The notes under the pieces were generated by a model. It saw nothing but the letters and a program-made list of their open reading frames with translations. It was not told the origin of the DNA and did not search any database. Shown here piece after piece: positions 6,052-42,158 of a stretch of 44,711 bases of DNA; positions within the stretch are counted from its first letter, which is position 1, and every line of letters begins with the position of its first letter. The DNA is from a virus. A program made the translations under genes and the position numbers. The DNA lies in IMG/VR virus record IMGVR_UViG_3300044453_000072; one strand, written 5' to 3'.

Positions 6052-6199
6052 AGGCGATGGTGCCGATGGCGAAGCTGACCGGGAACATTATCAGGAAATA
6101 GAGGCCGTTAACCCCAAGGACGGGTTCACGCTTTTTCTCATGCGACCACTCGGATTCGTGAAGGTCGATGAGGGGCGGGCGTTTGTCTTTGGGAGTCAC
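6011..6199 (-). CDS. Small membrane protein (62 aa), antisense cassette gene 2
   Basis: GTG start 6199 overlaps the upstream stop as GTGA. One hydrophobic helix is present (GLYFLIMFPVSFAIGTIASIVA). Confidence 0.4.
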   Translation of the reverse strand: MTPKDKRPPLIDLHESEWSHEKKREPVLGVNGLYFLIMFPVSFAIGTIASIVATGELPYFLR

Positions 6200-6447
6200 T
6201 GCCAGCAGTAGTCCAGAGCGAAGCGGCGGGCGTATTCGTCCAGCATCACTTCGATTTTTTCGCCGCTGACAACATAGACGGCTCGGTCGCCGATTTTCAC
6301 GGAATCGGCATCCTTCGGCTTTGCTTCACAGACTTCCGCGACTGCGTAATCGGCCCGGTATTCGTCATTGAGAAGAAACGGTTCTGTCTGCGGCGCTCCC
6401 GAAGGGCCAAGCGCGGCGGCAAGCAGAATGGCAGCGATCGTGTTCAT
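6196..6447 (-). CDS. Small secreted protein (83 aa), antisense cassette gene 1
   Basis: ATG 6447 gives MNTIAAILLAAALGPSGAPQ..., a signal-peptide-like N-terminus. The longer start at 6483 is TTG. Confidence 0.5.
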   Translation of the reverse strand: MNTIAAILLAAALGPSGAPQTEPFLLNDEYRADYAVAEVCEAKPKDADSVKIGDRAVYVVSGEKIEVMLDEYARRFALDYCWQ

Positions 6448-6458
6448 GAAGGTAAGAT

Positions 6459-8045
6459 ATGGCGACGATTGACCTGACTTCAAGTGATATCGACTATATC
6501 GGGCGTGTCGTTGCGACGGAAGTCCCCGGATATCTCGCCTACACCAATCCGCAAGCCTACCGCGACATGGTTGGTGCGGTGGTGGATACCGTGCTCAACC
6601 GCGTGGAAACAGGACGCTTTGGCGATACGGTCGAGGACGTTCTAAACCAGGACCGCGCTTTCTCGAAGATCACCGGCCCGTCGCGCCTCGACCCATACGG
6701 TTCGATAGAAGATACACCGAAGGCATCGGCGCGTGTCCAGCAGGAGGTCAACGAACATATCGCAAGCCGAGCGCGCGGCAAGCAGTCCAAGATCAACGGC
6801 GCGGTCAACTACGCCAACCCACTCTATTCAGACCAGAAGAATCTGACGGGCTGGATTGAGCCCATGATCGAGGCAGGCGCCCAGCGGTTCGGGTACGGCA
6901 AGGCACAGCACTACCACGGCAACGCGCCGGGACAGAGGCCGGCGGGTTTCTACAATGTCACGACGCCCGTGGGGTTCATGCCGCCCGTCGAGTTCGACCA
7001 ACTCCTTAATACGCCAATGGTGCCGTCAAGAGCGCCGCCTACCATGGCGGCACCGTTTGGCGTTGTCGAACGTGCGCCTCTTTCATCCGTGGAGGACGTG
7101 GCAAAGGCAAAAGCCTATGGCGACTATGCCCGTTCGCGCACCATGTCCCCCGACAGGCCGGACAACCACAACTATGGCGGGCCGAAGCTGACGCCAGAAC
7201 AGGATTACTTCGGGCCAAGGGCCAGCATCCCAACTGCCAGTGGCCCTATCAACATTGAATCGACTGGACGGGTGCGTACAGGCGTCGGCGTTAGCGGTCG
7301 CGGGGCGCTTTCCATTGCGCCGCCAGCAATCGACCAAACAAGGGTACAGTCCGTTCCGGGCCGCCAGTCGAACCTCATGGCCCCGCCGACGATCGATACG
7401 ATGACGCGGCAGCAGGCTAACGAGATTGCCAATGCATCTCAAGGGCGTCGCGGGCCAAGTCTTGCCGGGATAGACCCGCAAAGCATGGCCGCGCCGATGA
7501 CGGGATTCGAAGAAAGCATTCCCGCTGTCCCGGCCCCCGGCTTTCCCGAACCTCCGCCCGCGCCGGGCCGCACAGCCAGAACCGAGGCTGCCAAGGGTGC
7601 TGTTCTCGGTGGTTTGAAGGGCGGCATCCCCGGCGCGATCCTTGGCGCTATCATGGCTCCCGGCATGGCGCAGATCAGGGGCAATATCGCGTCTAACCGT
7701 GTCGGCATCGGGCAGAGGATCAATCCGCTTACAGGCATTCTCGGGGCTTATCGGGGTATGCTGGGCCCGCGGGGTGGTGGTTCAATATTCAGCGGCATCC
7801 CTGCGCCCAACTACAGCGCAACACCGTATTCTGTTGGCTCTGGGTATGGTGCAATCGGGAGCGTGTTCGGCGCGCCCGCCGGGGCCACGGCCTATTCCCG
7901 GTCGAACCCCTCTGTTTCCTTTACCAGCCTCGGTAATGGCTATGTGAGCCGGGCCAACAGGGACTACGGCACAACGCAAACGCTTGCTCCCGGTGACTAT
8001 GATGCCGGGATGTTCAGTGGCCGTTCCGACAGGAGCAAGAAATAA
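6459..8045 (+). CDS. Internal virion protein with N-terminal SleB-like cell-wall hydrolase domain and a long Pro/Gly-rich tail (528 aa)
   Basis: The N-terminus ...GRVVATEV...AVVDTVLNRV..FGDTVEDVLNQDRAFS...NYANP matches the Hydrolase_2/SleB signature. The remainder is low-complexity P/G/A/S. Confidence 0.75.
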   Translation: MATIDLTSSDIDYIGRVVATEVPGYLAYTNPQAYRDMVGAVVDTVLNRVETGRFGDTVEDVLNQDRAFSKITGPSRLDPYGSIEDTPKASARVQQEVNEHIASRARGKQSKINGAVNYANPLYSDQKNLTGWIEPMIEAGAQRFGYGKAQHYHGNAPGQRPAGFYNVTTPVGFMPPVEFDQLLNTPMVPSRAPPTMAAPFGVVERAPLSSVEDVAKAKAYGDYARSRTMSPDRPDNHNYGGPKLTPEQDYFGPRASIPTASGPINIESTGRVRTGVGVSGRGALSIAPPAIDQTRVQSVPGRQSNLMAPPTIDTMTRQQANEIANASQGRRGPSLAGIDPQSMAAPMTGFEESIPAVPAPGFPEPPPAPGRTARTEAAKGAVLGGLKGGIPGAILGAIMAPGMAQIRGNIASNRVGIGQRINPLTGILGAYRGMLGPRGGGSIFSGIPAPNYSATPYSVGSGYGAIGSVFGAPAGATAYSRSNPSVSFTSLGNGYVSRANRDYGTTQTLAPGDYDAGMFSGRSDRSKK

Positions 8046-15593: not shown

Positions 15594-16646
15594 CTATCCC
15601 CGCGTTACACTTTGCATTCTGCGCCCGGCAGATTCGGCCAGGCTCCGGCGATTTGCCGATTGTACGTAGGGCCGAGCCTCTTTCGCGTCTTTCCAGCCGA
15701 ACCACGCCGTCAGCTCGTATTCGGTCGCCCCGCCTTCGGCCATCTTGGTAGCGCGCCATTTCCGAACGCTATGTGCCGTGATGCCCTCGACGCCAGCTTG
15801 CCGGAACCACTTGGCGATGCGCTGCGATAGAGCCTTGTCGCTGGCGAAGGCTCTCCCCCAATCATTGGTGAGGAACACCAGCCCGTTCGTCTGCTCGATT
15901 ACGGCCCGCGCCTCCGGCGAGATGGTCAACTCGCACAGGACGCCGGTCTTAACCGTCTTGAAGCACAGAAGCCCGCTACGCACGTGCTGAGGCCCGAGAA
16001 TGCGCAGATCCGATACGCGCATCCCGAAGGCCTTCAGGAGCGTCATAGCGCGCCGTGCGGGGCCGCTGGTGTGGAAAGCCTCATATTGGGCGATATGCTC
16101 GTCAGTGGCAGTCTCATGGCCTTCTGTGGCGGCGTTCAGGCGCTTCACGTCCCGAACCGGGTTGTCGGCCCTCAGATCGTTGTCGAATGCGAAGGCGAAT
16201 ATCTGCGAGAGCACCTTCAGGCGCTCGTTCGCCGCGTGGGGGTTCGTCGCCTTCCGATTGCGCAGAATCGCGATATGCCGCGCCTCGATCTTCTCGAAAC
16301 GCTCCATGCCGAACGTCTCGGGGAAGCGCGGGTCAAGCGGCTCCGCCATCATGGTCAAGATGATCCTGCGCCGCGCCGAGCGTGTCGCTTCGGCCTTTAG
16401 CTTGAAGCCGGGGCTGTCCATGTACCTGTCGGCCAACCATGCGAGCGTGCCTTCGCTATTGATTGCAGCGGGCGCTTGCCAGGTCAAATGACGCTGGTAC
16501 ACTGCCATGAATTCGGGCGTCGTCGGGTCGCTCGGCAGTTCGCCAAGGGGCTGCCCGCGCCGCCGAAAATAGTAGCGGTACGATCCATCCTTGTTCCGCC
16601 GGACGGTGACATGCTTGAGGCGAAGGCGCATGATTGGAGCGTTCAC
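15594..16646 (-). CDS. int: Tyrosine recombinase / phage integrase (350 aa)
   Basis: The catalytic-domain signature is ...GMRVSDL...HSVRKWRAT...RPYVQ (R, H-x-x-R, Y). The N-terminal LRLKHVTVRRNKDGSYRYYFRRRG is typical of proteobacterial phage integrases. Confidence 0.9.
   Translation of the reverse strand: MNAPIMRLRLKHVTVRRNKDGSYRYYFRRRGQPLGELPSDPTTPEFMAVYQRHLTWQAPAAINSEGTLAWLADRYMDSPGFKLKAEATRSARRRIILTMMAEPLDPRFPETFGMERFEKIEARHIAILRNRKATNPHAANERLKVLSQIFAFAFDNDLRADNPVRDVKRLNAATEGHETATDEHIAQYEAFHTSGPARRAMTLLKAFGMRVSDLRILGPQHVRSGLLCFKTVKTGVLCELTISPEARAVIEQTNGLVFLTNDWGRAFASDKALSQRIAKWFRQAGVEGITAHSVRKWRATKMAEGGATEYELTAWFGWKDAKEARPYVQSANRRSLAESAGRRMQSVTRG
15601..15610 (-). promoter_or_regulatory. 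Partial fourth copy of the motif (GTGTAACGCG) inside the 3' end of int
   Basis: The minus-strand reading is AAAGTGTAACGCGGGGATAG, which spans the integrase stop codon. Confidence 0.4.
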
Positions 16647-20410: not shown

Positions 20411-21118
20411 CTAGCCTGCCATGATCGGGTATTGTGAAAGGTCGCTGCCGTTTGCCTCCTTGGCGTCACGGTCGGCCATCTGTTTCAGTTCCTTTTCGGC
20501 CTTCTCGAATTCCTCTGCGGCGGCATCGCACCAAGCCGGGGGCCACTTGTCGGTGGCGGCTTTCTTCGACCATGCCTGCCGGACGGACTGGAGCTTTACG
20601 GTCGTGCCGCACTCGTTGATTTCCCGCTTCATTTCCTCGAATACGCCATCGCGCTTTAGCTGCGCGCTGGACGTGCGCTTGGTCGGTTCCGCGCCGCCAT
20701 CATGGGCGCTGGCAACCTCCGGGTCGTCGCCGGTTTCGATCTGGAACAGCTTGAACAGTACGTATTTATTCGCGCCGGTAATGGCCTTGTAGACGCCCTT
20801 GTCGCCAACGGAACCATTCTTGGCCCGGTCATTGCCCATGCCAGCCGCGCCGATCTTCTCGGGCCAGACATCGCCGTCCTTGTGCATGAGGGTGTATTCC
20901 ATCTGCACCGTGACGTTGCCGTGGTCATCTACCGGCGTGACGGCCTTGACGGACGGAATGAGAAGCAGCCCGGCTTCGAGCATTGCGGGGCGTAGCTTGT
21001 CGAGCAGATCGGCCTCGCCTGCATACCTGTATCCGTGGAATGCGTTCTTGCCGGTTTTCTGCACGTAGCCGACTTTCGACATGACTTCGTGCAGTGCTTT
21101 TGCTATGGTTGCGGACAT
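20411..21118 (-). CDS. erf: ERF-family single-strand annealing protein (235 aa)
   Basis: The N-terminal signature is ...VMSKVGYVQKTGKNAFHGYRYAGEADLLDKLRPAMLEAGL... Confidence 0.85.
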   Translation of the reverse strand: MSATIAKALHEVMSKVGYVQKTGKNAFHGYRYAGEADLLDKLRPAMLEAGLLLIPSVKAVTPVDDHGNVTVQMEYTLMHKDGDVWPEKIGAAGMGNDRAKNGSVGDKGVYKAITGANKYVLFKLFQIETGDDPEVASAHDGGAEPTKRTSSAQLKRDGVFEEMKREINECGTTVKLQSVRQAWSKKAATDKWPPAWCDAAAEEFEKAEKELKQMADRDAKEANGSDLSQYPIMAG

Positions 21119-22668: not shown

Positions 22669-23550
22669 TCAGGCGGCAGGAACCAGTTTCCCGTCACGCG
22701 CGATGTACGGTGTATTCGGGAGCAGCCCGTCCTTGCCGATGCAGCCGGTAGCGAAACCGACGCACTTGCCGTCCTTGAACTCGGCTACGGAAATCCAAGT
22801 GCCATCGGCACCGGAAACGGACGTGCCGGGACCGGCAGAGGCCACGACGCTGTGGGCACCTTCAGCTACGATCTGCGCGTAGTTGCCGCTGGAACCGATC
22901 CGCGCGGAGTCGCCGCTGGAACCGATCCGCGCGTAGTTGCCGCTGGAACCGATCTGCGCGTAGTTGCCGCTGGAACCGATCCGCGCGGAGTCGCCGCTGG
23001 AACCGATCCGCGCGTAGTTGCCGCTGGAACCGATCTGCGCGGAGTCGCCGCTGGAACCGATCCGCGCGGAGTCGCCGCTGGAACCGATCCGCGCGTAGTT
23101 GCCGCTGGAACCGATCTGCGCGTAGTTGCCGCTGGAACCGATCCGCGCGTAGTCGCCGCTGGGGTCATCGCCCTTGCCCTTCGTGGCGTCGATCACCCAC
23201 GACACGGCGCGGCGGATAAAATCCGGTAGGCTGATTTCGGCGTCTATGGTAATCTTGGCGGCGCAAATCTTGCTGTCTTTCTGGCCGCTGTCGCGAACGA
23301 AACCAGCCATCGAAACATCGGCGTAGCGCGCCAGCTTGCCCTCGGCATCAACCGGCCCGTAATAGCCCCACACGTCGAAGGGCGAACCCTCGCAGGCATG
23401 GAAGCCGGACGAGCACATGACGACACCGCCCTGGTGCTCGTAGCTCTTGCCGACTTCGTACTGAAAGCCTCGGCATTTCAGGTCGGCGTCAAAGCCCTTG
23501 ATGGCCTTCACGGTTTCAGGCTGCTTCGATTTCGCGGGCTTCTTCGCCAT
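22669..23550 (-). CDS. Tandem nonapeptide-repeat protein (293 aa): conserved Cys/His N-domain plus about 11 x SG(N/D)(Y/S)A(R/Q)IGS
   Basis: The N-terminal KGFDADLKCRGFQYEVGKSYEH...CSSGFHACEGSPFDVWGYYGP is a widespread phage domain (recalled). The central repeats are encoded by the 27-bp tandem array. Confidence 0.8.
   Translation of the reverse strand: MAKKPAKSKQPETVKAIKGFDADLKCRGFQYEVGKSYEHQGGVVMCSSGFHACEGSPFDVWGYYGPVDAEGKLARYADVSMAGFVRDSGQKDSKICAAKITIDAEISLPDFIRRAVSWVIDATKGKGDDPSGDYARIGSSGNYAQIGSSGNYARIGSSGDSARIGSSGDSAQIGSSGNYARIGSSGDSARIGSSGNYAQIGSSGNYARIGSSGDSARIGSSGNYAQIVAEGAHSVVASAGPGTSVSGADGTWISVAEFKDGKCVGFATGCIGKDGLLPNTPYIARDGKLVPAA
22870..23162. repeat. 27-bp tandem repeat, about 10.7 copies, with an 81-bp higher-order period
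   Basis: The + strand unit is GCGCG(T/G)AGT(T/C)GCCGCTGGAACCGATC(C/T), and unit boundaries fall every 27 nt from 22875. The variant order is A B A' / A B A' / B B A' / A ... Confidence 0.95.
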
Positions 23551-26042: not shown

Positions 26043-26500
26043 ACAGCGCCAACCCTCGCACAAACAGCCTTGCACACGGCGGCACGGAATCGCGCTCCGA
26101 AGTGCAGCAGCGTCATTACGACAGCGGCCAGCACAACGGGGTAGGTCGCGATCAATCGCGCCTCCACGATGAATTCCTCGCCACCGCAGGATCGGCGCTT
26201 GGAATAAAAAACGAAGGTGTGCCGTCCATCGTCGGAATCCTCGATGTGCGACAGGCCATCGACATTCGTATTCGGGACGTAGACGGGCTCGGAAAGCATT
26301 TCGACAGCAAGCACTGCACTTCCCCCTGCATGGACTCTGCCCTTCAAGGGGAAGTTCTGGACGATTTGTCAGGCTGCACAAGCCAAGATCATGTTGTCCA
26401 CAGGGCGCATTCAAGCGGATGCTTAACCTTTCATTGCGGCTTCAATTCAAACCCCATCCGTCAATTCCGCGATGGCGTAACGGGGAGGCTGGCGGCATGA
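26039..26500 (+). CDS. Hypothetical protein (153 aa)
   Basis: ATGA overlaps at both ends (26039-42 and 26497-500) support the + frame over the antisense ORF 26036..26347. Confidence 0.45.
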   Translation: MNSANPRTNSLAHGGTESRSEVQQRHYDSGQHNGVGRDQSRLHDEFLATAGSALGIKNEGVPSIVGILDVRQAIDIRIRDVDGLGKHFDSKHCTSPCMDSALQGEVLDDLSGCTSQDHVVHRAHSSGCLTFHCGFNSNPIRQFRDGVTGRLAA

Positions 26501-27036
26501 CGGGACAGGGCCACAACCTTCCGGCTGGTGCCAGGCTTCGCTCGTTCATCGAACGTGTCGAACGACTGGACGAAGAAATCAAATCGCTCAACGCCGACAA
26601 GTCGGAAATCTACAAGGAAGCGCGCGGCGAGGGCTTTGACGCGAAAGTCATGCGCAAGGTCGTCACGGCGCGCAAGATGGACAGCGCCGATCGCGAGGAA
26701 CAGGACGCGCTTTTCGACCTGTACTGGTCGGCCATCCACGGCGAACCGGAAGAAGCCCCTCGCGCGCGTGCACGTGCACGCGAGGAAAACGAACAGCCTG
26801 TCCCGACCTCCCTTGCGGGTGATGACGGCCATCCGCAGCCAAGTTCCGAAGCCTCTCAGGTCAATGACGCACGGGAACAGGCAGGCGTGAGCGCCGATCA
26901 TGGTAGCGCCCATTCGGAACAAGAGCAGGCCAGCGCACCGCAGGGCGGTAATCCGGCCGCAAGCGAAAGCGGGGCCTCCGTCAACGACAATTCCGACGGC
27001 CTCGACATTCCGGAATTTCTGCGGAGGCCTGCATGA
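26497..27036 (+). CDS. GapR/DUF2312-like DNA-binding protein with a long acidic/low-complexity C-terminal extension (179 aa)
   Basis: GGGGAGG RBS. The DUF2312 signature is RLRSFIERVERLDEEIKSLNADKSEIYKEARGEGFDAKVMRKVV..RK.D...REEQDALFDLY. Confidence 0.8.
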   Translation: MTGQGHNLPAGARLRSFIERVERLDEEIKSLNADKSEIYKEARGEGFDAKVMRKVVTARKMDSADREEQDALFDLYWSAIHGEPEEAPRARARAREENEQPVPTSLAGDDGHPQPSSEASQVNDAREQAGVSADHGSAHSEQEQASAPQGGNPAASESGASVNDNSDGLDIPEFLRRPA

Positions 27037-29021: not shown

Positions 29022-29087
29022 ACCCACCGCGTTCCCGCGCCCCCTGTGTACGGCGCATTTCCCCCAACAAAACGAGGTGAGGGGATA

Positions 29088-29804
29088 ATGGACAGAGAAC
29101 AGAAGATAACCACTGCGGTTTGCTGGACACTGGCGGGTCTTGGCATGGCTGCACTGGCATGGGCAGCAATGAGCGAGGCGAAGGCGGCTCCCGTCAATGT
29201 GGACAATGCAATCGTGTTCCTGGCTGACGTTTCCAGCAGCATGGACGCCAACGAAATAGGTGTTGCTCGGGAAAGCCACGCATCTGCCGTTACGTCGCCT
29301 GACGTTCTGGACGCGATCCTCGGGACGGGCTTTCGGCAGTCCATGTTTGCCTATGTCGAGTTCTCTGAAAGCGCCGTCACGGTGGTTGACTGGACGCTGA
29401 TCGATTCAGCGGAAAGTGCGCAGCGGTTCGCTGCCGGGATACGCGATCATTCTAAGTCAAAGCCCCGCCCGCAACAAGGACTTACCGCCATTGGGACGGC
29501 CCTTTCCCATGCTTACGAGATGTTCGGGAATTGCGGATGCCGTCCCCTGTTCAAGACGGTTGACGTGGCGGGCGATGGTTCAAGCAATCTGGGTGTTAGC
29601 GTAAGCATTCCTCGGGAAATGCTGCTTCAGGAAGGCGTCACGATCAACGGCCTTCCCATGACGATTGCCCCGGCTGGCGAGACCGTCCCCGATTATTACG
29701 GCGAGTACATCATTGGTGGCCCCCGGTCTTTTTCGATCGAGCTTCGCGACATTGGCGAAATGCCCGTCCTGATGCGCCGCAAGCTGCTGATGGAGCTGTT
29801 CTGA
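29088..29804 (+). CDS. Secreted DUF1194-family vWA-like protein (238 aa)
   Basis: GAGGTGAGGGG RBS and signal peptide ...AGLGMAALAWAAMSEAKA. The DUF1194 signature is FLADVSSSMD..., TAIGTAL, VDVAGDGSSN, GVTINGLPM, YYGEYIIGGPRSF, RRKLLMEL. Confidence 0.8.
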   Translation: MDREQKITTAVCWTLAGLGMAALAWAAMSEAKAAPVNVDNAIVFLADVSSSMDANEIGVARESHASAVTSPDVLDAILGTGFRQSMFAYVEFSESAVTVVDWTLIDSAESAQRFAAGIRDHSKSKPRPQQGLTAIGTALSHAYEMFGNCGCRPLFKTVDVAGDGSSNLGVSVSIPREMLLQEGVTINGLPMTIAPAGETVPDYYGEYIIGGPRSFSIELRDIGEMPVLMRRKLLMELF

Positions 29805-31389: not shown

Positions 31390-31893
31390 ATGTACGCAGT
31401 ATCAGCGAGTGCAACCATGGCGGGGCTGGAAAAGCGCGGCGTTAAGTTCGTGCCGGATACGGGGATCGATCTCAGACGCCGGCAGCCCGAGCCGGTTCGG
31501 ATCGTTTATGCGCCCGATCCACGATTGGATGAGTACAGGCGCATCGCTGATGAGGCGATCGAGCGCGGCAACATCGCCTTGGCTCGGCTTAGGGAACTGG
31601 AGGATGAATTGGGCGAACGTCGGTTCACGCCGATCACACTGAGCAGGATCGAGCGGCGTATCTCAAAGGCCCTCAAAGTCCCTGTCCACGAAATCCACAG
31701 CAACCGCCGAACGAGGCATGTAGTGCTTGCGAGACAGGCGGTCACATATTGGGCCTATCGGCTGACATCGCTTTCTCTGCCAGAGATCGGCCGCCGGTTG
31801 GGCGGGAAGGACCATACATCGATCCTCCACGGCAAGACGGTCTATCCGAAAAAACGCGCCGCCATGGGCCGCTATCTGAGGGAAGCGCGGTGA
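31390..31893 (+). CDS. DnaA domain-IV (DnaA C-terminal HTH) containing protein (167 aa)
   Basis: The Bac_DnaA_C signature is ISKALKVPVHEIHSNRRTRHVVLARQAVTYWAYRLTSLSLPEIGRRLGGKDHTSILHG. No AAA+ domain is present. Confidence 0.75.
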   Translation: MYAVSASATMAGLEKRGVKFVPDTGIDLRRRQPEPVRIVYAPDPRLDEYRRIADEAIERGNIALARLRELEDELGERRFTPITLSRIERRISKALKVPVHEIHSNRRTRHVVLARQAVTYWAYRLTSLSLPEIGRRLGGKDHTSILHGKTVYPKKRAAMGRYLREAR

Positions 31894-33396: not shown

Positions 33397-33855
33397 ATGG
33401 CCGCAGGCCGTCCAAGCGGCTACAGCCAAGACACGGCCGACGCGATCTGTAATCGGCTTGTATCCGGTGAGAGCCTTCGCACTATCTGCGATGATGAAGC
33501 GATGCCCGCTTGTTCGACGGTATTCAAGTGGCTGGCTGAAAACCCGGAATTTTCGGAGCAATACACGCGCGCAAGAGAAGCGCAGGCCGACGCTCTTTTC
33601 GATGATGTTCTGTCCATTGCTGACGACGCTCGCAACGACTGGATGAAAAGTCGCGGCGAGGATGATGCTGGCTGGGTAGCAAACGGCGAGCACATCCAGC
33701 GGTCCAAGCTCCGCATTGATGCCCGCAAATGGATGGCCGGGAAACTGAAGCCGAAGAAGTACGGCGAAAAGCTGGAGCTGTCTGGTGACGCTGAAAACCC
33801 TGTTGCGGTGTCGGTAATTGAACGTCGCATCATCGACCCGAAAGCTGACCGTTGA
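33397..33855 (+). CDS. terS: Terminase small subunit (152 aa)
   Basis: The TerS signature is GRPSGYSQDTADAICNRLVSGESLRTICDDEAMPACSTVFKWLAENPEFSEQYTRAREAQAD. It lies directly upstream of TerL. Confidence 0.8.
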   Translation: MAAGRPSGYSQDTADAICNRLVSGESLRTICDDEAMPACSTVFKWLAENPEFSEQYTRAREAQADALFDDVLSIADDARNDWMKSRGEDDAGWVANGEHIQRSKLRIDARKWMAGKLKPKKYGEKLELSGDAENPVAVSVIERRIIDPKADR

Positions 33856-35128
33856 TGTTGCTAGGGTCTTCGTCCCACTCCTAACACAGGCTCGGTACAA
33901 AGGCGCATGGGGCGGTCGCGGTTCTGGCAAGTCTCATTTCTTCGCCGGCCATCTGATTGAAGACAGCCTGGCTGAAAAGGGGCTGCGCTCGGTCTGCATT
34001 CGTGAGGTCCAGAAGTCCCTCAAGGAATCGGCCAAGCGTCTCATTGAAGACAAGCTGGCGGAGTTCCGGCTTGGTGAGGCTGACGGCTTCAAGGTCTTTC
34101 GCGAGGTTATCGAAACGCCCGGCGATGGTCTGATTACCTTTCAGGGTATGCAGGACCACACGGCGGAGTCGATCAAGTCGCTGGAGGGCTTCAAGCGGGC
34201 GTGGGCAGAGGAAGCCCAGACGCTATCGGCCCGGTCGCTTTCATTGCTTAGACCGACAATTCGTTCGGAAGGTTCGGAGCTGTGGTTCTCATGGAACCCG
34301 CGCCGCAAGAACGATCCTGTCGATGTGATGCTGAGGGGCGAAACCTTACCAACCGGCGCAACGGTTATTCGGGCCAACTGGTCTGACAACCCGTGGTTTC
34401 CGAGTGTTCTTGAGCAGGAGCGTGAGGATTGCCTGAACCAGACGCCGGACCAATATGACCACATCTGGGAAGGCGGATACGCAACGGTGCTTGAAGGCGC
34501 GTATTACGCTCAGGCTCTTGCTCAAGCGAAACAGGACGGTCGAATTGGCAAAGTAGCTGCCGACCCGAACCTGACGATCAAGCTCGTTTGCGATATTGGT
34601 GGCACTGGTGCAAAGGCTGATGCGTTCGCAATCGTTTGTGAGCAGTGGGTAGGGCGCACGATCTGCGTGCTCGATTACTACGAGGCGCAGGGGCAGGACT
34701 TCGCCGCGCATCTCAATTGGCTTCGTAGCCGTGGTTACACGCCTGAGCGAACGCAAGTCATCCTGCCGCATGACGGCAAGAGCCACGACAAGGTCTATGA
34801 CGTTTCATACGAGAGCGCATTCCGCGATGCGGGGTATGACGTTGTTGTAATTCCGAACCAGGGCAAGGGCGCTGCAATGCAGCGTGTGACGGTCTCTCGC
34901 AGGCTATTCCCGAGCATCTGGTTCAACGAGGAAACGACCGGCGGATTGCTGGAAGCTCTCGGTTGGTATCACGAGCGTCGTGACGAAGACCGCAACACTG
35001 GTCTCGGGCCTGAGCACGATTGGGCATCCAACGGCGCTGATGCGTTCGGTCTCGGCTGTGTTGCTTATGAGGCGCCGAGGGGCAAGCCGAAGATAGAATT
35101 CGCTGGCACAGGTTCATGGATGGGCTAA
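33818..35128 (+). CDS. terL: Terminase large subunit (436 aa)
   Basis: Walker A is GGRGSGKS and the C-terminal half is nuclease-like. The start (TTG 33818) is uncertain and overlaps terS. Confidence 0.9.
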   Translation: MNVASSTRKLTVDVARVFVPLLTQARYKGAWGGRGSGKSHFFAGHLIEDSLAEKGLRSVCIREVQKSLKESAKRLIEDKLAEFRLGEADGFKVFREVIETPGDGLITFQGMQDHTAESIKSLEGFKRAWAEEAQTLSARSLSLLRPTIRSEGSELWFSWNPRRKNDPVDVMLRGETLPTGATVIRANWSDNPWFPSVLEQEREDCLNQTPDQYDHIWEGGYATVLEGAYYAQALAQAKQDGRIGKVAADPNLTIKLVCDIGGTGAKADAFAIVCEQWVGRTICVLDYYEAQGQDFAAHLNWLRSRGYTPERTQVILPHDGKSHDKVYDVSYESAFRDAGYDVVVIPNQGKGAAMQRVTVSRRLFPSIWFNEETTGGLLEALGWYHERRDEDRNTGLGPEHDWASNGADAFGLGCVAYEAPRGKPKIEFAGTGSWMG

Positions 35129-35328
35129 CCGCTGATGAACTCCGCGCCCTTTTCGCGACGGAGTTCAACAAGGTTCTCGGCACAACGCCACAAGCCCGGT
35201 TCGAACGGGCGCATTTGCTGAACATGCTGACACGCAAGCTGACCGCGCATTTCGATGCTGCGGGCTGGCCGGCCACGCAAGAGGAAACCCTTGCCTATGT
35301 ACGACAAGCAGTCGAACGATACGGCTAA
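35116..35328 (+). CDS. Small helical protein between terL and portal (70 aa)
   Basis: ATG 35116 overlaps the terL end. Confidence 0.45.
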   Translation: MDGLTADELRALFATEFNKVLGTTPQARFERAHLLNMLTRKLTAHFDAAGWPATQEETLAYVRQAVERYG

Positions 35329-37336
35329 GGATAACGACGCGCTCATCAAGCGGGCGCGCGATGTTTTCTCCCGATGCAAGGATGCAGGCGACCACAACCG
35401 CCAGACCGCCATTGACGACATTCGCTTTGCCCGTCTCGGCGAGCAGTGGCCCAGCGATATCGTTGAGCAGCGCAAGCGGGAATCGAGGCCGCACCTCACC
35501 ATCAACAGGCTTCCGGCATTTATCCGCCAGGTGGTTAACGATGCGCGCCAGAACAAGCCAGGCATCAAGGTTCGCCCTGCGGATAGCAACGCAGACAAGG
35601 ACACGGCAGAGGTCATCAATGGCCTGATCCGCAACATCGAATACACGTCCGACGCCGATGTGGCTTACGACACGGGTGTTGAATGTGCGGTAACTGGTGG
35701 TTTCGGGTACTGGCGCATCGATCTCGACTACGCGCATAGCGACAGTTTCGATCTGGATATCCGCATAGCGCGCATTTCCAATCCGCTGAGCGTTTACGAA
35801 GACCCGAATGCGACGGCCGCCGATTCATCGGACTGGAACGACTGCTTTGTCACCGATGTCCTGAGCGAGGAGCAGTTCAAGGCCAAGTATCCCAAGGCCG
35901 ACAATCGTCATTGGGACGATACCGACGCATGGGGCGATGCGCCTGACTGGCATGACAACGGCATTGTTGTTGCGGAGTGGTGGAGCCGCGAGGAGGTCGA
36001 GGAGGAAATTGTCCAGCTTCAGGACGGCTCGGTCTATTCGGCTAAGCAGCTTCAGGAAGACGAAGACCTTCTGCTGGTTCGCATCCAGATCGAGAACTTC
36101 CCCGACACGGTGAAGGCCCGCAAGACCAAGAAAGCCTACAAGGTCACGCAGCGCATCATGACCGGGCTTGAGGTGCTGGAAACGAACGAATGGCCGGGGC
36201 AGTACATCCCGATCATCCCGGTTTACGGCGATGAGATTGTCGTCAACGGCAAGCGCTATTTCCGCTCGCTGATCCATGACGCCATCGATCCGCAGCGCAT
36301 GTTCAATTACTGGCGCACTACGTCCACGGAACTGGTGGCGCTTGCTCCTCGTGTGCCGTTTATCGGGCCTGAGGGCGCATTCGATGTCGATCCGGAGAAA
36401 TGGGCGTCGATCAACACACGGTCCCATGCGTTTGTCGAATATTCCAAGAATGCGGTAGCCGCGCCCCAGCGGCAGCCGCTCGATGCCGGCCCGGCAGCAG
36501 GCGCGATGCAGGAAGCATTGCTTGCCTCGGATGACATGAAGGGCGTCATGGGGCTGCACGACGCATCCCTTGGGGCAAAATCGAACGAAACCAGCGGCAG
36601 GGCGATCATGGCCCGCCAGCGGGAAGGGGACGTTTCCACATTCCACTTCCAGGACAATGAAAGCCGCGCCATCAGGCACACCGGCAGGGTCATCCTGGAC
36701 CTGTTGCCGCATGTCTACAACAAGGCCCGCGTGGTCAGGGTTCTTGGCGAGGACGGCAAGGAGCGTCCCGTCCAGATCGGCCAGGAATATCAGAAGCAAG
36801 ACCCGAAAACGGGTGAATTGCTGTTTGAACAGGATGCGAACGGCATCGACCAGCCTGTCATGGCGATGCACGATTTGACCGTGGGCAAGTACGACCTGAC
36901 CGTCACAACTGGCCCGAGCTTCACGACACGGCGCGAGGAAGCCGCTTTCCAGATGACGGAAATGATCCGTGCGCTACCTGCCTCCGCACCGATCCTTGGC
37001 AAGCATCTGGCCCGCAATCTGGATTGGCCGGGTGCCGACGAGATCGCGGAGGAACTGGAAGCCCTTGTGCCCAAGCCGGACGTGATACCGCGCGATGAGG
37101 CCATGCAGATTGCGCAGCAATTCCAGCAGCGCATTGCCGAGCTTGAACAGGAAAACCGCGACCTGAAGACAAATGCCGGCGTGGATATGCAGCGGCTCGG
37201 CGAGGAACAGCGCGCCAACATGGCGGATGAGGCCACGGATCGTTTCAACGCCATCACCGATCGGATGAAGGTCGGCGTAAGCGCCAGACAGGCAGAACAG
37301 CGGGCATCGCAGCCCCGACAGAATCCGCAGCGCTGA
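35297..37336 (+). CDS. Portal protein (679 aa; alternative ATG at 35255)
   Basis: Its position and size fit. The N-terminal ...DDIRFARLGEQWPSDIVEQRKRESRPHLTINRLPAFIRQVVNDARQNKPGIKVRP is typical of P22-type portals (recalled). Confidence 0.85.
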   Translation: MYDKQSNDTAKDNDALIKRARDVFSRCKDAGDHNRQTAIDDIRFARLGEQWPSDIVEQRKRESRPHLTINRLPAFIRQVVNDARQNKPGIKVRPADSNADKDTAEVINGLIRNIEYTSDADVAYDTGVECAVTGGFGYWRIDLDYAHSDSFDLDIRIARISNPLSVYEDPNATAADSSDWNDCFVTDVLSEEQFKAKYPKADNRHWDDTDAWGDAPDWHDNGIVVAEWWSREEVEEEIVQLQDGSVYSAKQLQEDEDLLLVRIQIENFPDTVKARKTKKAYKVTQRIMTGLEVLETNEWPGQYIPIIPVYGDEIVVNGKRYFRSLIHDAIDPQRMFNYWRTTSTELVALAPRVPFIGPEGAFDVDPEKWASINTRSHAFVEYSKNAVAAPQRQPLDAGPAAGAMQEALLASDDMKGVMGLHDASLGAKSNETSGRAIMARQREGDVSTFHFQDNESRAIRHTGRVILDLLPHVYNKARVVRVLGEDGKERPVQIGQEYQKQDPKTGELLFEQDANGIDQPVMAMHDLTVGKYDLTVTTGPSFTTRREEAAFQMTEMIRALPASAPILGKHLARNLDWPGADEIAEELEALVPKPDVIPRDEAMQIAQQFQQRIAELEQENRDLKTNAGVDMQRLGEEQRANMADEATDRFNAITDRMKVGVSARQAEQRASQPRQNPQR

Positions 37337-37388: not shown

Positions 37389-38285
37389 ATGGCTGACGAA
37401 CTGGAAGCTATTGCCGAAACCGAACAGGCCCAGCCTGCAATCGGAGAAGGCGAGAAAGGCAACGTTCTGGAGCAAGCCGACACTGACGGCACTCAGGAGC
37501 AGGAAGTAGAACAGCCGGAAGGCGAAGAAGGTGCGGAAGGCGAGGAACAGCCCGTCGATGACGGGTTGACCGATCTCGACTTTGCATTCGGCAAATGGAG
37601 GGTCGATCCGAAGCTTGCCGAGGCCGTAACCGGCCTTCAGAAGACCTTCACGGAAAAGACCCAGACCTACAATTCGGAATTGCGTGAGTTGAAGGCGAAA
37701 GCCGAGGCCCGCGCGGAAGCCAACGAGGCGGAACTGACCGCGCGCGCTCAGTTGACGCATGTCAACCAAGAGATGAAGCGGTTCGAAGCCTATGACTGGC
37801 AGGCCTACCTGTTGCATAAGCAGGATGACCCATATGCGGCACAGGAGGCATGGGACTACAAGCAGCATCTGTCCCAGCAAAAGACCCATCTGGAGGGCGA
37901 AATCCAGAACCAGCAGACCATCCGGTCTCAGGAGACGCAGCAAGAATTTGCCAAGCGTGTTGAGGAAACCCGGCAGTTTGCGATGAAGGAAATCGAGGGC
38001 TGGACGCCAGAAATGGACCAGAAGCTCCTCGAATTTGCGCAGAGCATGGAAATCCCGGAGGACTCCATCAGGAGCAACCTCAATCCGGTATTCTACAAGC
38101 TACTGCATCGCGCATGGATAGGGGAACAGACCCTGTCCCGAAAACCGGCGGCGGCTAAACAGCCCCAGCAGCAGGCGAAACCGACCTCGAAAATTGCTCC
38201 ACGTTCAAATCCGGGCGCCCAGAAATCGCTCTCGGAAATGAACATGGATGAATACGTGGCGGCGCGCAGAAAGCAGGGTCTCTAA
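37389..38285 (+). CDS. Scaffolding protein (298 aa)
   Basis: Highly charged E/Q/K/A-rich coiled-coil ORF between the portal and coat genes. Confidence 0.7.
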   Translation: MADELEAIAETEQAQPAIGEGEKGNVLEQADTDGTQEQEVEQPEGEEGAEGEEQPVDDGLTDLDFAFGKWRVDPKLAEAVTGLQKTFTEKTQTYNSELRELKAKAEARAEANEAELTARAQLTHVNQEMKRFEAYDWQAYLLHKQDDPYAAQEAWDYKQHLSQQKTHLEGEIQNQQTIRSQETQQEFAKRVEETRQFAMKEIEGWTPEMDQKLLEFAQSMEIPEDSIRSNLNPVFYKLLHRAWIGEQTLSRKPAAAKQPQQQAKPTSKIAPRSNPGAQKSLSEMNMDEYVAARRKQGL

Positions 38286-38367
38286 CCGCCTTTCCCAACC
38301 CGATGGAACGCCGTGATGGCTGTCCCGTCCCTGAGCCGACCCCAGTGTCGGCCCGATGGAGCATGAA

Positions 38368-39636
38368 ATGTCCAATACCACACTGACTGCGGACATCATC
38401 GCCAAAGAAGCGGTGATGATCCTCGATAACGAACTCGTCATGGCCAAGAAGGTGTTTCGCGGCTACGAGGAGGATTTCTCCAAGAAGGTCAACGGATACA
38501 CGGTTGGTTCAACCATCTCGATCCGCAAGCCGACCGACTTCACCGTCCGCGACGGCGCTGTGATGAACACGCAGGACGTTACCGAGGGCAAGACCACGAT
38601 CACCGTGGACAAGCGCAAGGGCGTCGATTTCAAGTTCACTTCGCAGGAACTGACCCTCGACATCAAGAGCCTGTCCGAGCGCGTCATCAAGCCCGCCATG
38701 GTGCAGCTCGCCAACCAGGTCGATACCGATCTGATGGCTCTGTACAAGGACGTTCCGTCCTGGCTGGGCAGCCCGGCAACGCCGATCAATTCCTACGCCG
38801 ACTTCGCCAAGGCTCCGGAGCGCATGGACGAGTACGCCAATCCGATGGACGATCGGTGCGCGGTCCTGTCGCCCGCCGACCATTGGGGCCTGCTCGGCTC
38901 GCAGACTGCCCTCTACATGCAGGATGTGGCCAAGGGCGCTTACCGCAAGGGTTCGCTCGGCATGATCGGCGGCGTTGACACCTACATGTCCCAGAACGTG
39001 CCGACCCATACGGTAGGTGCGGCCGATGATTCCACTGCGGTGGTCGATGCGGCGACCGGCACGGGAGACGGCACTACCGCCGCCAATTCGGGCCTGAGCG
39101 CATCGTATGATGACGTGAAGGACTTGGGCTACATGTACCTGTCCACGGATGGATGGGATGCATCGACGCTGAAGGCCGGCGATATCATCACTCTGGGCAG
39201 CATCTACGCCGTCAACCCCGTCACCAAGGCCACGCTGTCTTTCGAGAAGCAGTTCACCGTTCTTGAGGACACGACCACGGCAGCGGGCGATACGGCGATC
39301 AAGATCGCGCCTCCGATCATCACGTCAGGGCCGTTCCAGAACGTCAGCGCAACGCCTGTCGATGGCACGACCACTGTTACCGTGATGGGCACTGCCAGCA
39401 CCGGCTATCGCCAGAACATGGTGTTCCACAAGAACGCCTTCGCTCTGGTATCCGTCCCGCTGGTGTCGCCTCCGGGCGCGGTCGATGTTGGCCGTCAGTC
39501 CTACAAGGGCACCAGCGTTCGCGTGATCCCCGTCTATGACGGCATCAACGATCACTCGGCGTGGCGTCTGGACATTCTCTACGGCACCAAGACCGTGGAC
39601 AACCGTCTGGCTCATCGCCTGAGCGGCACGACCTGA
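38368..39636 (+). CDS. Major capsid (coat) protein, P22 gp5-like family (422 aa; alternative ATG at 38356)
   Basis: GGAG lies 6 nt upstream of ATG 38368. The N-terminal LTADIIAKEAVMILDNELVMAKKVFRGYEEDF...GSTISIRKP matches the coat family pattern (recalled). A stem-loop follows the stop. Confidence 0.85.
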   Translation: MSNTTLTADIIAKEAVMILDNELVMAKKVFRGYEEDFSKKVNGYTVGSTISIRKPTDFTVRDGAVMNTQDVTEGKTTITVDKRKGVDFKFTSQELTLDIKSLSERVIKPAMVQLANQVDTDLMALYKDVPSWLGSPATPINSYADFAKAPERMDEYANPMDDRCAVLSPADHWGLLGSQTALYMQDVAKGAYRKGSLGMIGGVDTYMSQNVPTHTVGAADDSTAVVDAATGTGDGTTAANSGLSASYDDVKDLGYMYLSTDGWDASTLKAGDIITLGSIYAVNPVTKATLSFEKQFTVLEDTTTAAGDTAIKIAPPIITSGPFQNVSATPVDGTTTVTVMGTASTGYRQNMVFHKNAFALVSVPLVSPPGAVDVGRQSYKGTSVRVIPVYDGINDHSAWRLDILYGTKTVDNRLAHRLSGTT

Positions 39637-39640
39637 TAGC

Positions 39641-39658
39641 GAGGGGCCGAAGCCCCTC
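39641..39658 (+). terminator. Stem-loop after the coat gene (attenuator or mRNA-stabilising hairpin)
   Basis: GAGGGGC-CGAA-GCCCCTC is a 7-bp GC stem followed by CATTCCTTCC. Confidence 0.5.
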
Positions 39659-39693: not shown

Positions 39694-39954
39694 ATGGCTG
39701 TTAAGGAACTCTCCGACGGCGGGACGGACGGCGTTCGTCTTGGCCAGGATACCAGCGACAAGGTGGGCTTCTTCGGCGAAACGCCGGTTGTCCGCTACGC
39801 AACCAGCATCGCTGCACCGACCTCCACCGCTGCCGTGTCGATCTCGGCAACGCAGTGGGGCTTCACTTCGTCTGCGGCAGCGGATTCGCTGATCACGACC
39901 GTCTTCAAGCTCCAGACGGCGATGCAGGCTTACGGACTGGTCAGCTCGTCCTAA
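39694..39954 (+). CDS. Small Ser/Thr/Ala-rich head-associated protein (86 aa), decoration-protein candidate
   Basis: It lies immediately after the coat gene. ..GGTDGVRLGQDTSDKVGFFGETPV.. is followed by SIAAPTSTAAVSISATQWGFTSSAAADS...GLVSSS. Confidence 0.55.
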   Translation: MAVKELSDGGTDGVRLGQDTSDKVGFFGETPVVRYATSIAAPTSTAAVSISATQWGFTSSAAADSLITTVFKLQTAMQAYGLVSSS

Positions 39955-39960
39955 GCCACC

Positions 39961-40641
39961 GTGAGCAAGGTATTCTTCGCGATCCCGACGCTTTCGGGGG
40001 AAATTGAAGCGCCGACAACGGCGTCCCTGCAAGCGACAGAACGCGAACTGCTCGCAAATGGCGACGGGGCGGAATTTCTAGTCTGGAAGGGTGACTCAAT
40101 CATCCCGCAGGCGAGAAACTACCTCGTCGCCAAATTCCTCGCATCCGACTGCACCGACCTGTTTTTCATCGACGCTGACGTGTCGTGGGAGCCGGGCGCG
40201 GTGCTTCGGATGCTCTCCCATCCCGTAGACTTCGTGGCGGGCGTCTATCGCCACAAGAAGATGGATGAATCCTATCCCGTCAATTGGCTCGACAAGCCGG
40301 AACTGTGGGCCGATCCCGATACGGGGCTTCTCGAGGTCCGGGCTGTCCCGATGGGCTTCACGCGGCTCACACGGGCGGCTGTGGAGCGCATGACGGAAGC
40401 CAGCGACAGGCCGTTCCTGCACCACAGCGACCCGTCGATCCTCTGCCACTGCCTGTTCGATCTGGAATACCGGAACGGGCTGTATATCGGCGAGGACTAC
40501 GTGTTTTGCGAACGCTGGCGGGAATTGGGCGGTCAGGTCTGGATTGATCCCGAACTGACGCTTGGTCACACCGGCAAGCACACCTTCACGGGCAATATCG
40601 GCAAGTGGCTGAAAGGCAGGGCGAATGAAGCTCACGATTGA
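39961..40641 (+). CDS. GT-A-fold glycosyltransferase (226 aa), GTG start
   Basis: The N-terminal KVFFAIPT strand, ..ARNYLVAKFL.. and the DxD-type FFIDADVSW, then VAGVYRHK and IGEDYVFCERW, are typical of family-2-like phage glycosyltransferases. Confidence 0.7.
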   Translation: MSKVFFAIPTLSGEIEAPTTASLQATERELLANGDGAEFLVWKGDSIIPQARNYLVAKFLASDCTDLFFIDADVSWEPGAVLRMLSHPVDFVAGVYRHKKMDESYPVNWLDKPELWADPDTGLLEVRAVPMGFTRLTRAAVERMTEASDRPFLHHSDPSILCHCLFDLEYRNGLYIGEDYVFCERWRELGGQVWIDPELTLGHTGKHTFTGNIGKWLKGRANEAHD

Positions 40642-41485
40642 AATCGCCACGCGCGGCAGGCCGGAACTGCTGCTGGATACCGTTCGGACCTTTCGAGACA
40701 ACATCACCGAGCCTGACACGACTATCCTGATCTGCGCCGACAGGGACGACCACGAAACGGTTGAAGCCCTGTATCGCGAGGATATCGAAGACGACCCGCA
40801 TATCAAAGTGTCGGTCAAGCCCCGCGAAGAAACCCGTGGCCTGAAATACCAGCGCGCACTGACCGAAGCGCCGGCAGATGTCTATCTGGTTGGTGTAGAC
40901 CATACCCCAATCCGCACCAAGGGCTTTGACCGGCTCATTCTGGAGCGCGCAGCACAGTTTCCCGATGGGATTGGCGTTGTCTGCACACCAATGGCGAACG
41001 CTTCCTTCCCTTTCCTTCAGGCACCCACGACCCGTCTTGTCGAACTCATGGGCTACGTCCAGCCCCCGCACTTCCCCTTCTGGTTCATAGACCACTGGCT
41101 TGACGACATAGCCCGCATGATCGGGCGCTACGCAATGGTCGATGTCAAGGTTAATTCCAACAAGCACCCCGGCAAGACGATAGGTCTGAGGGATGTTGCT
41201 TTCTGGGCCTCGTATTTCGATCTGCTGGCCGGGGAACGCCGCAGACAGGCCAACCTCATCATCGACAAGATGGACGAACCCGAATGGCGCAAGGCCATGC
41301 TGAGGGGCAACTTCCCGATGGTCGAATACCGCTCGCGCTGGGTGAACGACATCGTTCGCCAGAATGCCGAGGCTCTGGAAGAAGGCCGCTCCGACAAGTC
41401 GGTAGACGAGAACTACGCCCGCGTTCTGGAGCGCGCCCGTCGCGGCGTTGAAGAAATGCTCGATACCCGGCCGGAAGCGGCCTGA
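40625..41485 (+). CDS. Second glycosyltransferase-like protein (286 aa)
   Basis: MKLTIEIATRGRPELLLDTV... followed by the acidic ILICADRDD looks like a GT-A start. The rest was not recognised. Confidence 0.45.
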   Translation: MKLTIEIATRGRPELLLDTVRTFRDNITEPDTTILICADRDDHETVEALYREDIEDDPHIKVSVKPREETRGLKYQRALTEAPADVYLVGVDHTPIRTKGFDRLILERAAQFPDGIGVVCTPMANASFPFLQAPTTRLVELMGYVQPPHFPFWFIDHWLDDIARMIGRYAMVDVKVNSNKHPGKTIGLRDVAFWASYFDLLAGERRRQANLIIDKMDEPEWRKAMLRGNFPMVEYRSRWVNDIVRQNAEALEEGRSDKSVDENYARVLERARRGVEEMLDTRPEAA

Positions 41486-41495
41486 GAGGTAGTCC

Positions 41496-42158
41496 ATGGC
41501 TACACTGGATTTCACCACCTACAGTGGGCTTCAGTCCGCTGCGCTGAACTTTATCGAGCGCCCGGCGGAAACCAATGAGGTCAAGGGCTGGATTGATCTT
41601 GCCGAAGCGCGGCTGAACCGCAAGATTGCGGCAGTAGAGGTCGATACGACACTTACCGGCACGTCCTCAAGCCGCAATATCTCCGTTTCGTCCCTGTCCA
41701 TTTCCCGACCTGTCGCGCTGAAATTCGTCAATGACGATGGCGACGAGTCCGATCTGGTTATGCGGTCCCTCGCTAGCCTGTCGTTTCTGGACGACAATGG
41801 TGAACCGTCCGAATGGGCCTATGACAGCGACGACAACCAGCTTGTCCTCAATCGCCCACTGGATGCCGCAGATACGTTCCGCTTTATCTATCGTGAGAAG
41901 TTCGCGCTTTCGGATTCGGCAACCACAAACTGGCTGCTGACCAACCATCCTGACCTGTACCTCGCTGCAACGCTGATCTGGGGCGCGGCCTATCGCGAGG
42001 AAATCCAGAACGCGGTGGCATGGAAGGCGATTCTTGACGAGGGAATAGAGGAAGTCCGCAGGGAGATAACCAGCGGCAAGGCGGGCCAGCTTGCCCATGA
42101 TCCTGCATTGCTCGGCAAATGGCCCTTCCGTGGCGTGAACCTGGAAGGCGAAATCTAG
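41496..42158 (+). CDS. Head-tail adaptor / virion structural protein candidate (220 aa)
   Basis: The call rests on position. The N-terminal ...LQSAALNFIERP....GWIDLAEARLNRKI pattern occurs in phage neck/adaptor proteins (recalled). Confidence 0.4.
   Translation: MATLDFTTYSGLQSAALNFIERPAETNEVKGWIDLAEARLNRKIAAVEVDTTLTGTSSSRNISVSSLSISRPVALKFVNDDGDESDLVMRSLASLSFLDDNGEPSEWAYDSDDNQLVLNRPLDAADTFRFIYREKFALSDSATTNWLLTNHPDLYLAATLIWGAAYREEIQNAVAWKAILDEGIEEVRREITSGKAGQLAHDPALLGKWPFRGVNLEGEI

Follow-up and report, generated by a model that had tools for sequence, protein, structure and literature searches.

A small Ser/Thr/Ala-rich protein and a GT-A-fold glycosyltransferase form a conserved cassette behind the coat gene of P22-like phages: a candidate system for virion glycosylation

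Why would a phage keep glycosyltransferase (GT) genes among the genes for its head? The question is raised by IMG/VR virus record IMGVR_UViG_3300044453_000072, a stretch of 44,711 nucleotides (nt; hereafter the window) that looks like the complete 44.7-kb genome of a temperate P22-like podovirus. On its plus strand, three open reading frames (ORFs) lie between the genes for the major coat protein and the head-to-tail adaptor. They encode an 86-amino-acid (aa) protein rich in serine, threonine and alanine (39694-39954; hereafter the small protein) and two soluble GT-A glycosyltransferases, GT1 (226 aa, 39961-40641) and GT2 (286 aa, 40625-41485). The original prediction, made from the letters of the sequence, had described these three ORFs and proposed that the enzymes act on virion proteins; its coordinates, strand and flanking genes were all correct. 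The cassette is well supported as a conserved module, and its function is unproven. Glycosylation of a virion protein, with the small protein as the likeliest acceptor, is our best reading of it, at a probability of roughly 0.55.

The arrangement recurs far beyond the window. In a survey seeded with GT1, which covered the best 80 of more than 530 IMG/VR loci, a P22-type coat gene was followed by the small gene and then by GT1 in essentially all loci that had upstream DNA, and the same order is found in the GenBank metagenome-assembled genomes MW202691 and MW202573. When the small protein was used as the seed, GT1 lay downstream in 53 of 66 evaluable loci. With the surveys pooled, the start of GT1 is no more than 100 nt from the small gene in 131 of 163 loci. 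Both genes are present in 51 of the 63 clusters (70% identity) formed by 151 full-length coats from these first two surveys and from earlier loci.

A further survey was seeded with the coat protein and is thus unbiased for the cassette. It covered coats 48-77% identical to that of the window and gave 58 evaluable loci, in which both genes were present in 16, the small gene only in five, GT1 only in five and neither in 32. The association between the two genes has an odds ratio of 20 and a Fisher p of 2.8e-6, a value that is indicative only because the test ignores the relatedness of the loci; it holds after dereplication. In the 32 loci without either gene, the adaptor gene starts 60-70 nt past the coat gene. 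Judged by this gene content, the small gene and GT1 come and go as one accessory cassette; the pair is not a core head gene followed by an unrelated passenger. GT2 was found in six of the 58 loci, always within the cassette, and is an optional add-on, with GT1 as the cassette's common enzyme. The tie to the head module is not peculiar to the window: GT1 is linked to the small protein, and both of them to P22-type coats, across dozens of lineages. At the DNA level the region matched none of 50,697 phage records, nor did GT2 in a tblastn search of these records. The cultured phages nearest by coat (Thalassomonas BA3, Xanthomonas PBR31, Rhodoferax P26218 and DSL-LC05) carry other small ORFs after the coat gene, none of them homologues of the small protein.

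What kind of enzyme is GT1? As single sequences, GT1, GT2 and the small protein returned only noise from the PDB, and profiles were needed. A word-indexed search gave 165 GT1 homologues, and the AlphaFold2 model built from the homologue alignment has a predicted local distance difference test score (pLDDT) of 96 and a compact GT-A fold. A Foldseek search of the PDB with this model returned 45 matches at E<=1e-3, nearly all of them GT-A glycosyltransferases or nucleotidyltransferases. The top match is A197 of the archaeal Sulfolobus turreted icosahedral virus (STIV; 2c0n, E=7.6e-11), and the others include the collagen galactosyltransferase ColGalT1, the GT domain of LH3, mimivirus R699, WrtF, A64R of Paramecium bursaria chlorella virus 1 (PBCV-1), pp-GalNAc-T and Fringe. 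A197 and A64R belong to viruses with glycosylated capsids, and ColGalT1, LH3, pp-GalNAc-T and Fringe are protein O-glycosyltransferases, which counts in favour of virion glycosylation. The GT1 family profile also picks up A197 at the sequence level (E=1e-4), the two DxD motifs falling on each other (FLDEDV in A197). Among the viral structures in BFVD, 'Glyco_tranf_GTA_type' proteins of uncultured Caudovirales match GT1 with template modelling (TM) scores of 0.8-0.9. The predicted motif FFIDADVSW is present in GT1, and D71, D73 and the pair E178-D179 (a GED motif) are invariant across 52 homologues, a pattern that points to a catalytic role for the DxD and the downstream acidic pair. Curated families give little: no Pfam family scores above threshold (only Anp1 appears, at 15.3 bits against a cutoff of 28.8), the NCBIfam match, a weak one to the exopolysaccharide (EPS) glycosyltransferase model NF038299, is sub-threshold, and phrog_1574, which GT1 matches, is annotated 'unknown function'. 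On its model and its profile, GT1 is best described as a GT-A-fold glycosyltransferase of an uncurated family related to A197.

GT2, with 141 homologues in the word-indexed search, is modelled with a pLDDT of 95 as a GT-A fold carrying a charged C-terminal helical domain. It has 198 PDB matches at E<=1e-3, and the top folds (E ~1e-7 to 1e-6) are RmlT, TarS, PcManGT, GtrB, TarP and pp-GalNAc-transferases. D39, D41, D42 and D92 are invariant among its homologues, some of which are fused to a PF13578 methyltransferase. GT2 matches phrog_14945 'glycosyltransferase' (E=3.6e-6) and, weakly, a Dol-P-Man synthase profile (E=0.023); no Pfam family, PF00535 (Glycos_transf_2) included, was found at E<=0.1. 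Its predicted structure is that of a GT-A enzyme resembling those of CAZy family GT2. The assignment of both ORFs to GT-A-fold glycosyltransferases, the first of them originally marked by its DxD-type motif, is thus sustained by the Foldseek comparison of two confident models. The GT1 and GT2 families show no detectable relationship to each other, and a recent duplication giving rise to the two was considered and rejected, the profile-profile hhalign probability being 0.3%.

The small protein contains 12 serines, 11 threonines and 12 alanines among its 86 residues, the composition originally described, and its centre is 39% Ser+Thr. The word-indexed search found 12 homologues and a profile search 1491 representative clusters. 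In the alignments, the family has a conserved N-terminus, roughly MAxKELSDGxxDGTxLGQxxxDKVGFYGATPVVQ or, written more loosely, MAxKELSDGxxDGxxLGQxxxDKVGFFGxTPVV, then a variable and nearly uncharged centre (~29% Ser+Thr, ~54% Ser/Thr/Ala; TQWGFTSS is found there in the window's protein), and finally an amphipathic helix, a Gly-Leu and a short variable tail. G81 is invariant and the Leu that follows nearly so, and the tail beyond varies (IA, FV, ITA, IKGSA). The C-terminal GLVSSS, once proposed as a substrate site, is confined to close relatives of the window's protein. A tail so variable is unlikely to hold the key site; the stretch that is rich in Ser/Thr/Ala throughout the family is the central one.

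The relatives of the small protein say something of its probable nature. Some family members are 354-463 aa long, with large repeat domains inserted mid-protein. A unit of the form TGTKIGT…QKLGFFGATPVxQ…LxxLGL, which is uncurated, is tandemly repeated 3-5 times in phage proteins of 250-1070 aa (P0253, P0255, P0263, P0331 and P0385; loci L286-L326). These proteins belong to very different phages, actinobacteriophages included, and among them are annotated minor tail proteins of Gordonia phages such as Stormageddon (NC_054726, 29557-29739). In the multi-repeat proteins only the last unit has the Ser/Thr-rich stretch, the [WYF]G[FY][ST] motif and the terminal helix, an architecture identical to that of the window's protein. 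The inserted domains and the tandem-repeat relatives suggest that the small protein is structural and fibre-like. PHROG and Pfam scans of family members and multi-repeat relatives found no curated family, there was no PDB match, and a marginal 'head fiber protein' match of one member is not relied on. For the multi-repeat relative P0263 no loci were found, and for P0385 no annotated phage. A double-glycine leader in the sequence ELSDGG was also considered; it was rejected, since conservation runs well beyond it and large proteins carry the unit as an internal repeat.

A separate observation concerns Xanthomonas phage PBR31, whose orf023 (126 aa, L170 4881-5261) follows the coat gene and resembles a repeat domain of the form …VNKPTxQAGL…GxARVSAANT…. 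A domain of this kind sits mid-protein in long members of the small-protein family (L126 3956-5020; L144 2729-4120). The likeness in sequence suggests that these phages may draw on a common pool of capsid-surface display domains.

The enzyme that follows the small gene can be exchanged. In two loci the place of GT1 is taken by an ORF that matches PF01973, the Maf/MptE-like family (46.9 bits in L119 and 38.9 bits in L152, against a gathering score of 34.6 bits), and the ORF in this slot in L106 matches PF01973 below the gathering score. PF01973 is the domain of Maf enzymes, which O-glycosylate the Ser/Thr residues of flagellin (bioRxiv 10.1101/2020.06.03.131540). The Maf-like ORF of L119 has no meaningful PDB match. 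Elsewhere a GT2-like enzyme stands alone in the slot (L091), a 168-aa S-adenosylmethionine (SAM) methyltransferase is encoded between the small gene and GT1 (14 loci, e.g. L002 6495-7001), or a 764-aa fusion joins two canonical GT2 domains to a GT1-like domain (L136 4600-6894). In L207, the closest relative by coat (77%), the small gene is followed by a 392-aa ORF of unknown kind (5541-6719).

In the window, the cassette is tightly built into the late operon. Its 5' boundary is the gene for the 426-aa P22-type coat protein (38356-39636, plus strand; Pfam PF11651, E=6e-55; phrog_283, E=7e-93) and its 3' boundary that for the SU10-type adaptor (41496-42158, plus strand; Pfam PF24175, E=7e-19). 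The small gene starts with ATG and has an AAAGGA ribosome-binding site 8 nt upstream; GT1 starts with GTG 6 nt past the small gene's stop codon, and the 5' end of GT2 overlaps GT1 by 17 nt. This packing, with the ribosome-binding site and the overlap, implies that the three genes share a transcript with the head genes and are probably coupled in translation, and no sigma-70-like promoter was detected on the plus strand between 38000 and 42500. Directly 3' of the coat stop codon, the sequence can be read as a GC-rich hairpin, GAGGGGC-CGAA-GCCCCTC (39641-39658, plus strand). Lacking a T-run, it went uncalled in a terminator scan; its likely role is that of an attenuator or RNA-stability element, which would keep the cassette expressed below the highly expressed coat gene. 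The small protein, GT1 and GT2 each have a maximal 19-aa hydropathy of ~1.0 and hence no membrane segments. The integrase gene (15594-16646, minus strand) is 23 kb away, in keeping with the original emphasis on a late, head-module position far from int.

On the opposite strand, a 310-aa ORF (40586-41518, minus strand) spans all of GT2 and is longer than it, so that a naive longest-ORF caller takes it instead. We rejected it as a gene, for no homology backs it and the high G+C content explains it as an artefact. The three ORFs of the cassette, each of which has homologues, are by this criterion genuine genes and not chance frames.

How could such a cassette work? We favour glycosylation of a virion protein because a soluble, initiating-type GT-A enzyme is tied to a Ser/Thr/Ala-rich, fibre-like protein in the head operon, because interchangeable glycan-building and methylating enzymes surround this pair, because a known family of protein O-glycosyltransferases replaces GT1 in relatives, and because membrane partners are absent. 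The 86-aa protein would be a short fibre or decoration protein, a single copy of the unit that is repeated in phage fibre and minor-tail proteins, and would be synthesised in the cytoplasm alongside the two soluble enzymes. GT1, with a nucleotide sugar and a DxD-bound metal, would add the first sugar to Ser/Thr residues in the exposed centre of the small protein, or, less likely, to the coat. GT2 would then lengthen the glycan, and the glycoprotein would be assembled into the particle to give the capsid a sugar coat. Enzymes swapped or added at the slot (Maf-type, SAM methyltransferase, multi-GT fusions) would make the glycan vary between phages.

The full picture of which this would be an instance is more tentative, and we hold it at somewhat under even odds. 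It is that of a widespread, unrecognised capsid sugar-coat system in environmental P22-like phages of Gram-negatives. A new A197-like GT-A family would act in the cytoplasm to O-glycosylate a dedicated small fibre protein, whose conserved ends would be assembly-competent and whose Ser/Thr/Ala-rich centre would be exposed; the capsid would then carry this protein on its surface, and the enzyme set would be swapped as in a flagellin glycosylation island. We found no published description of the cassette, the small-protein family or the GT1 family.

Parts of this scheme have counterparts in known systems. The best structural and profile match of GT1, STIV A197 (target-normalised TM-score 0.65), is likewise a minimal soluble GT-A enzyme with a DxD. 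The major capsid protein of STIV is glycosylated; for A197 itself, no acceptor is known to have been established. The two enzymes are only ~20% identical and differ in host domain, in the architecture of their viruses and in gene neighbourhood. In the capsid glycosylation of PBCV-1 (A64R) and the fibril glycosylation of mimivirus, virus-encoded GT-A enzymes also work in the cytoplasm with no host endoplasmic reticulum or periplasmic machinery, and both A64R and R699 match GT1 in structure. PBCV-1 and mimivirus are, however, giant viruses of eukaryotes, with large sets of glycan genes and atypical N-linked glycans on the major capsid protein, whereas the cassette here comprises two enzymes and a small dedicated protein.

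In the Maf-dependent O-glycosylation of flagellin in Aeromonas, Campylobacter and Clostridium, a soluble cytoplasmic glycosyltransferase adjoins the gene of its substrate, and the substrate has an exposed central Ser/Thr region between conserved N- and C-terminal parts that drive self-assembly. These features resemble those of the cassette. Unlike the Maf enzymes, those of the window have no PF01973 match, the candidate substrate is not a flagellin, and no genes for nonulosonic-acid biosynthesis were seen.

The nearest functional precedent comes from other phages. In the papers examined, among them PMC12619734 and PMC13313380, virion glycosylation is described for actinobacteriophages only, with C-terminal extensions of capsid and tail-tube subunits as acceptors. 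This agrees with the original statement that virion glycosylation is known for some mycobacteriophages, no case being known to its author among proteobacterial podoviruses of this type. The systems of mycobacteriophages Che8, Corndog and Myrna are reported to be the subject of Freeman et al. (2023, Cell Host Microbe). There too the phage encodes the glycosyltransferases, often together with methyltransferases, and decoration of virion proteins is proposed to take place in the cytoplasm before or during assembly. Methyltransferases accompany the cassette in relatives (the 14 loci mentioned above, and the PF13578 fusions) and not in the window, which has two glycosyltransferases. The mycobacteriophage systems differ in that they belong to actinobacterial siphoviruses and myoviruses, not to a P22-like podovirus, and in their enzyme families (Ardmore gp87 matches GT1 with a TM-score of only 0.46). 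Experimental evidence for glycosylated phage virions is known only from a few actinobacteriophages, whereas the cassette is a prediction from genes and models.

Several findings weigh against glycosylation of the small protein as we propose it. In five of the 58 coat-seeded loci (L244, L248, L265, L275 and L218) GT1 comes straight after the coat gene and the small gene is missing, and in four other loci (L088, L109, L114 and L169) a small gene leads straight to the adaptor with no recognisable glycosyltransferase. The coupling between the two genes, as read from these loci, is thus strong and not obligate. Neither the Ser/Thr content of the small protein nor its [WYF]G[FY] motif correlates with the presence of GT1, and tblastn found the small protein in none of the cultured phages of the 50,697-record collection. 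TM-scores to solved structures are just 0.45-0.65, and the closest structural matches of GT2 (TarS, TarP, RmlT and GtrB) act on teichoic acid or lipid carriers, not on proteins. Finally, GT1 homologues are found beyond phage heads: in T4-like cyanophages, Caulobacter Cr30 and Sinorhizobium myoviruses; beside early and DNA genes in MW202753, in the case of a distant homologue; and, at 29-39% identity, as lone genes on bacterial chromosomes (L176, L177 of Vineibacter terrae NZ_VDUZ01000014, and L181), where no phage coat or small-protein gene lies within 5 kb. The enzyme family is therefore not limited to its role in the cassette.

The loci with GT1 and no small gene keep alive the alternative that fares best, namely that the enzymes glycosylate another virion protein, chiefly the coat and possibly the tail, while the small protein merely travels with them and stays unmodified, serving in decoration, as cement or as a targeting cofactor. 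In the one phage case known from experiment, that of Freeman et al. (2023) as summarised in PMC12619734, the acceptors are indeed capsid and tail-tube subunits, and the window's coat has a stretch rich in Ser, Thr, Asp and Gly at residues 224-250. Coats with and without GT1, however, show no difference in length, Ser/Thr content, indels, composition or C-terminal extension, and no Ser/Thr-rich insertion sets them apart. In the mycobacteriophages the acceptor sites are C-terminal extensions; here the coat stops at its conserved C-terminus, a podovirus lacks a tail tube, and the candidate is a small protein encoded separately. Since coats are alike regardless of GT1, the small protein is the stronger candidate, and a coat acceptor would leave unexplained why the small gene and GT1 come and go together and why the small protein has a variable Ser/Thr/Ala-rich centre. 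We consider this alternative unlikely. The original proposal that virion proteins are the substrates is thus favoured for the small protein, through its linkage to GT1, and weakened for the coat, which has no feature that tracks with GT1.

Marginally less likely again is that the enzymes modify a glycan of the host envelope, such as the O-antigen of lipopolysaccharide, the capsule or EPS, or a lipid- or teichoic-acid-like carrier, for superinfection exclusion or progeny release. The phage is temperate, with its integrase and Erf, the folds that GT2 resembles best are those of transferases for cell-wall polymers and lipid carriers, and GT1 weakly recalls an EPS glycosyltransferase model. Morons, as which the genes would then sit in the late operon, are frequent between phage head and tail genes. 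The Gtr cassettes (GtrA/GtrB/GtrC) of P22-like and Shigella phages are a precedent, being glycosyltransferase genes of temperate P22-like phages in which GtrB is a fold match of GT2. Gtr cassettes, though, lie beside int/attP and encode membrane proteins that act on undecaprenyl phosphate and O-antigen, whereas the cassette here is in the late head operon, far from int, with no GtrA- or GtrC-like partner and no membrane segment. It also has no promoter of its own that we could detect, which makes expression in a lysogen unlikely. Its fixed slot between coat and adaptor, beside the small protein, across coats only 30-40% identical is unexpected for free-standing morons, and the enzymes that replace GT1 in relatives, being Maf-type, come from a protein glycosyltransferase family.

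A third alternative, that the small protein is glycosylated and yet not part of the virion (a secreted or intracellular glycopeptide like a glycocin or another ribosomally synthesised and post-translationally modified peptide, a decoy or a carrier), takes up the fact that a gene for a small Ser/Thr-rich peptide lies directly 5' of, and translationally coupled to, a GT-A gene. Glycocin gene pairs, in which a peptide gene neighbours a glycosyltransferase gene, resemble this arrangement of the small gene and GT1. We regard such a product as improbable, for the unit recurs in tandem in large phage proteins, annotated minor tail proteins among them, some family members have large repeat domains inserted, no leader or cleavage motif, transporter or immunity gene was found, and the gene stays strictly within the head module. 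The alpha- and beta-GT of T4, which glycosylate DNA, have a GT-B fold. Glycosylation of hydroxymethylated bases in the phage DNA to evade restriction, a common role of phage glycosyltransferases (PMC12619734) and one that the distant GT1 homologue in MW202753 might recall, is the least credible explanation by far, given the late head operon, the GT-A fold and the finding of no thymidylate-synthase-like protein or base hydroxymethylase among the ~30 larger ORFs scanned, a part of the window's ORFs that leaves some small ones outside.

The rest of the genome fits a temperate P22-like phage. An Erf-type annealing protein is encoded at 20411-21118 on the minus strand, and the large terminase at 33818-35128; the P22-type portal (35255-37336) and the scaffold (37389-38285) precede the coat gene in the late operon. 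A GapR-like DNA-binding protein (26419-27036), a DUF1194/VWA protein (29046-29804) and a DnaA C-terminal HTH protein (31390-31893) are encoded on the plus strand, and the matches of the first two suggest that the host is probably an alphaproteobacterium. Among bacterial genome bins, the coat, the small protein and GT1 occur together in one from Alphaproteobacteria (L174) and one from Verrucomicrobiia (L179), and a Sphingomonas bin (L178) has the coat followed by GT1.

Two further ORFs of the window stood out. One, of 506 aa in the tail and injection region (4531-6051, plus strand), matches phrog_21712 'major head protein' (E=3.8e-25). Either this PHROG is misannotated or a tail-region protein contains a diverged HK97-like domain; the actual coat is that at 38356-39636. 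The other (22669-23550, minus strand) lies in the early region and combines DUF7666 with a collagen-like triple-helix repeat and a weak match to a tail-fibre PHROG, an odd content for the early strand.

If virion glycosylation by the cassette is correct, it would be the first beyond the actinobacteriophages and the first to have an acceptor protein of its own, and it would be a modular system with a separate acceptor and a new enzyme family. With more than 530 GT1 relatives in IMG/VR and ~1,500 representative clusters of the small protein, uncultivated podoviruses that infect Proteobacteria and other Gram-negative lineages would commonly have glycosylated capsids, and two large families of 'hypothetical proteins' would gain a function. 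In actinobacteriophages, virion glycans are reported to blunt recognition by antibodies. A sugar coat on P22-like particles would affect their contacts with host surfaces, mucus, grazers and immune systems, and the cassette, with its two or three genes, would be a compact tool for the display of defined glycans on phage particles.

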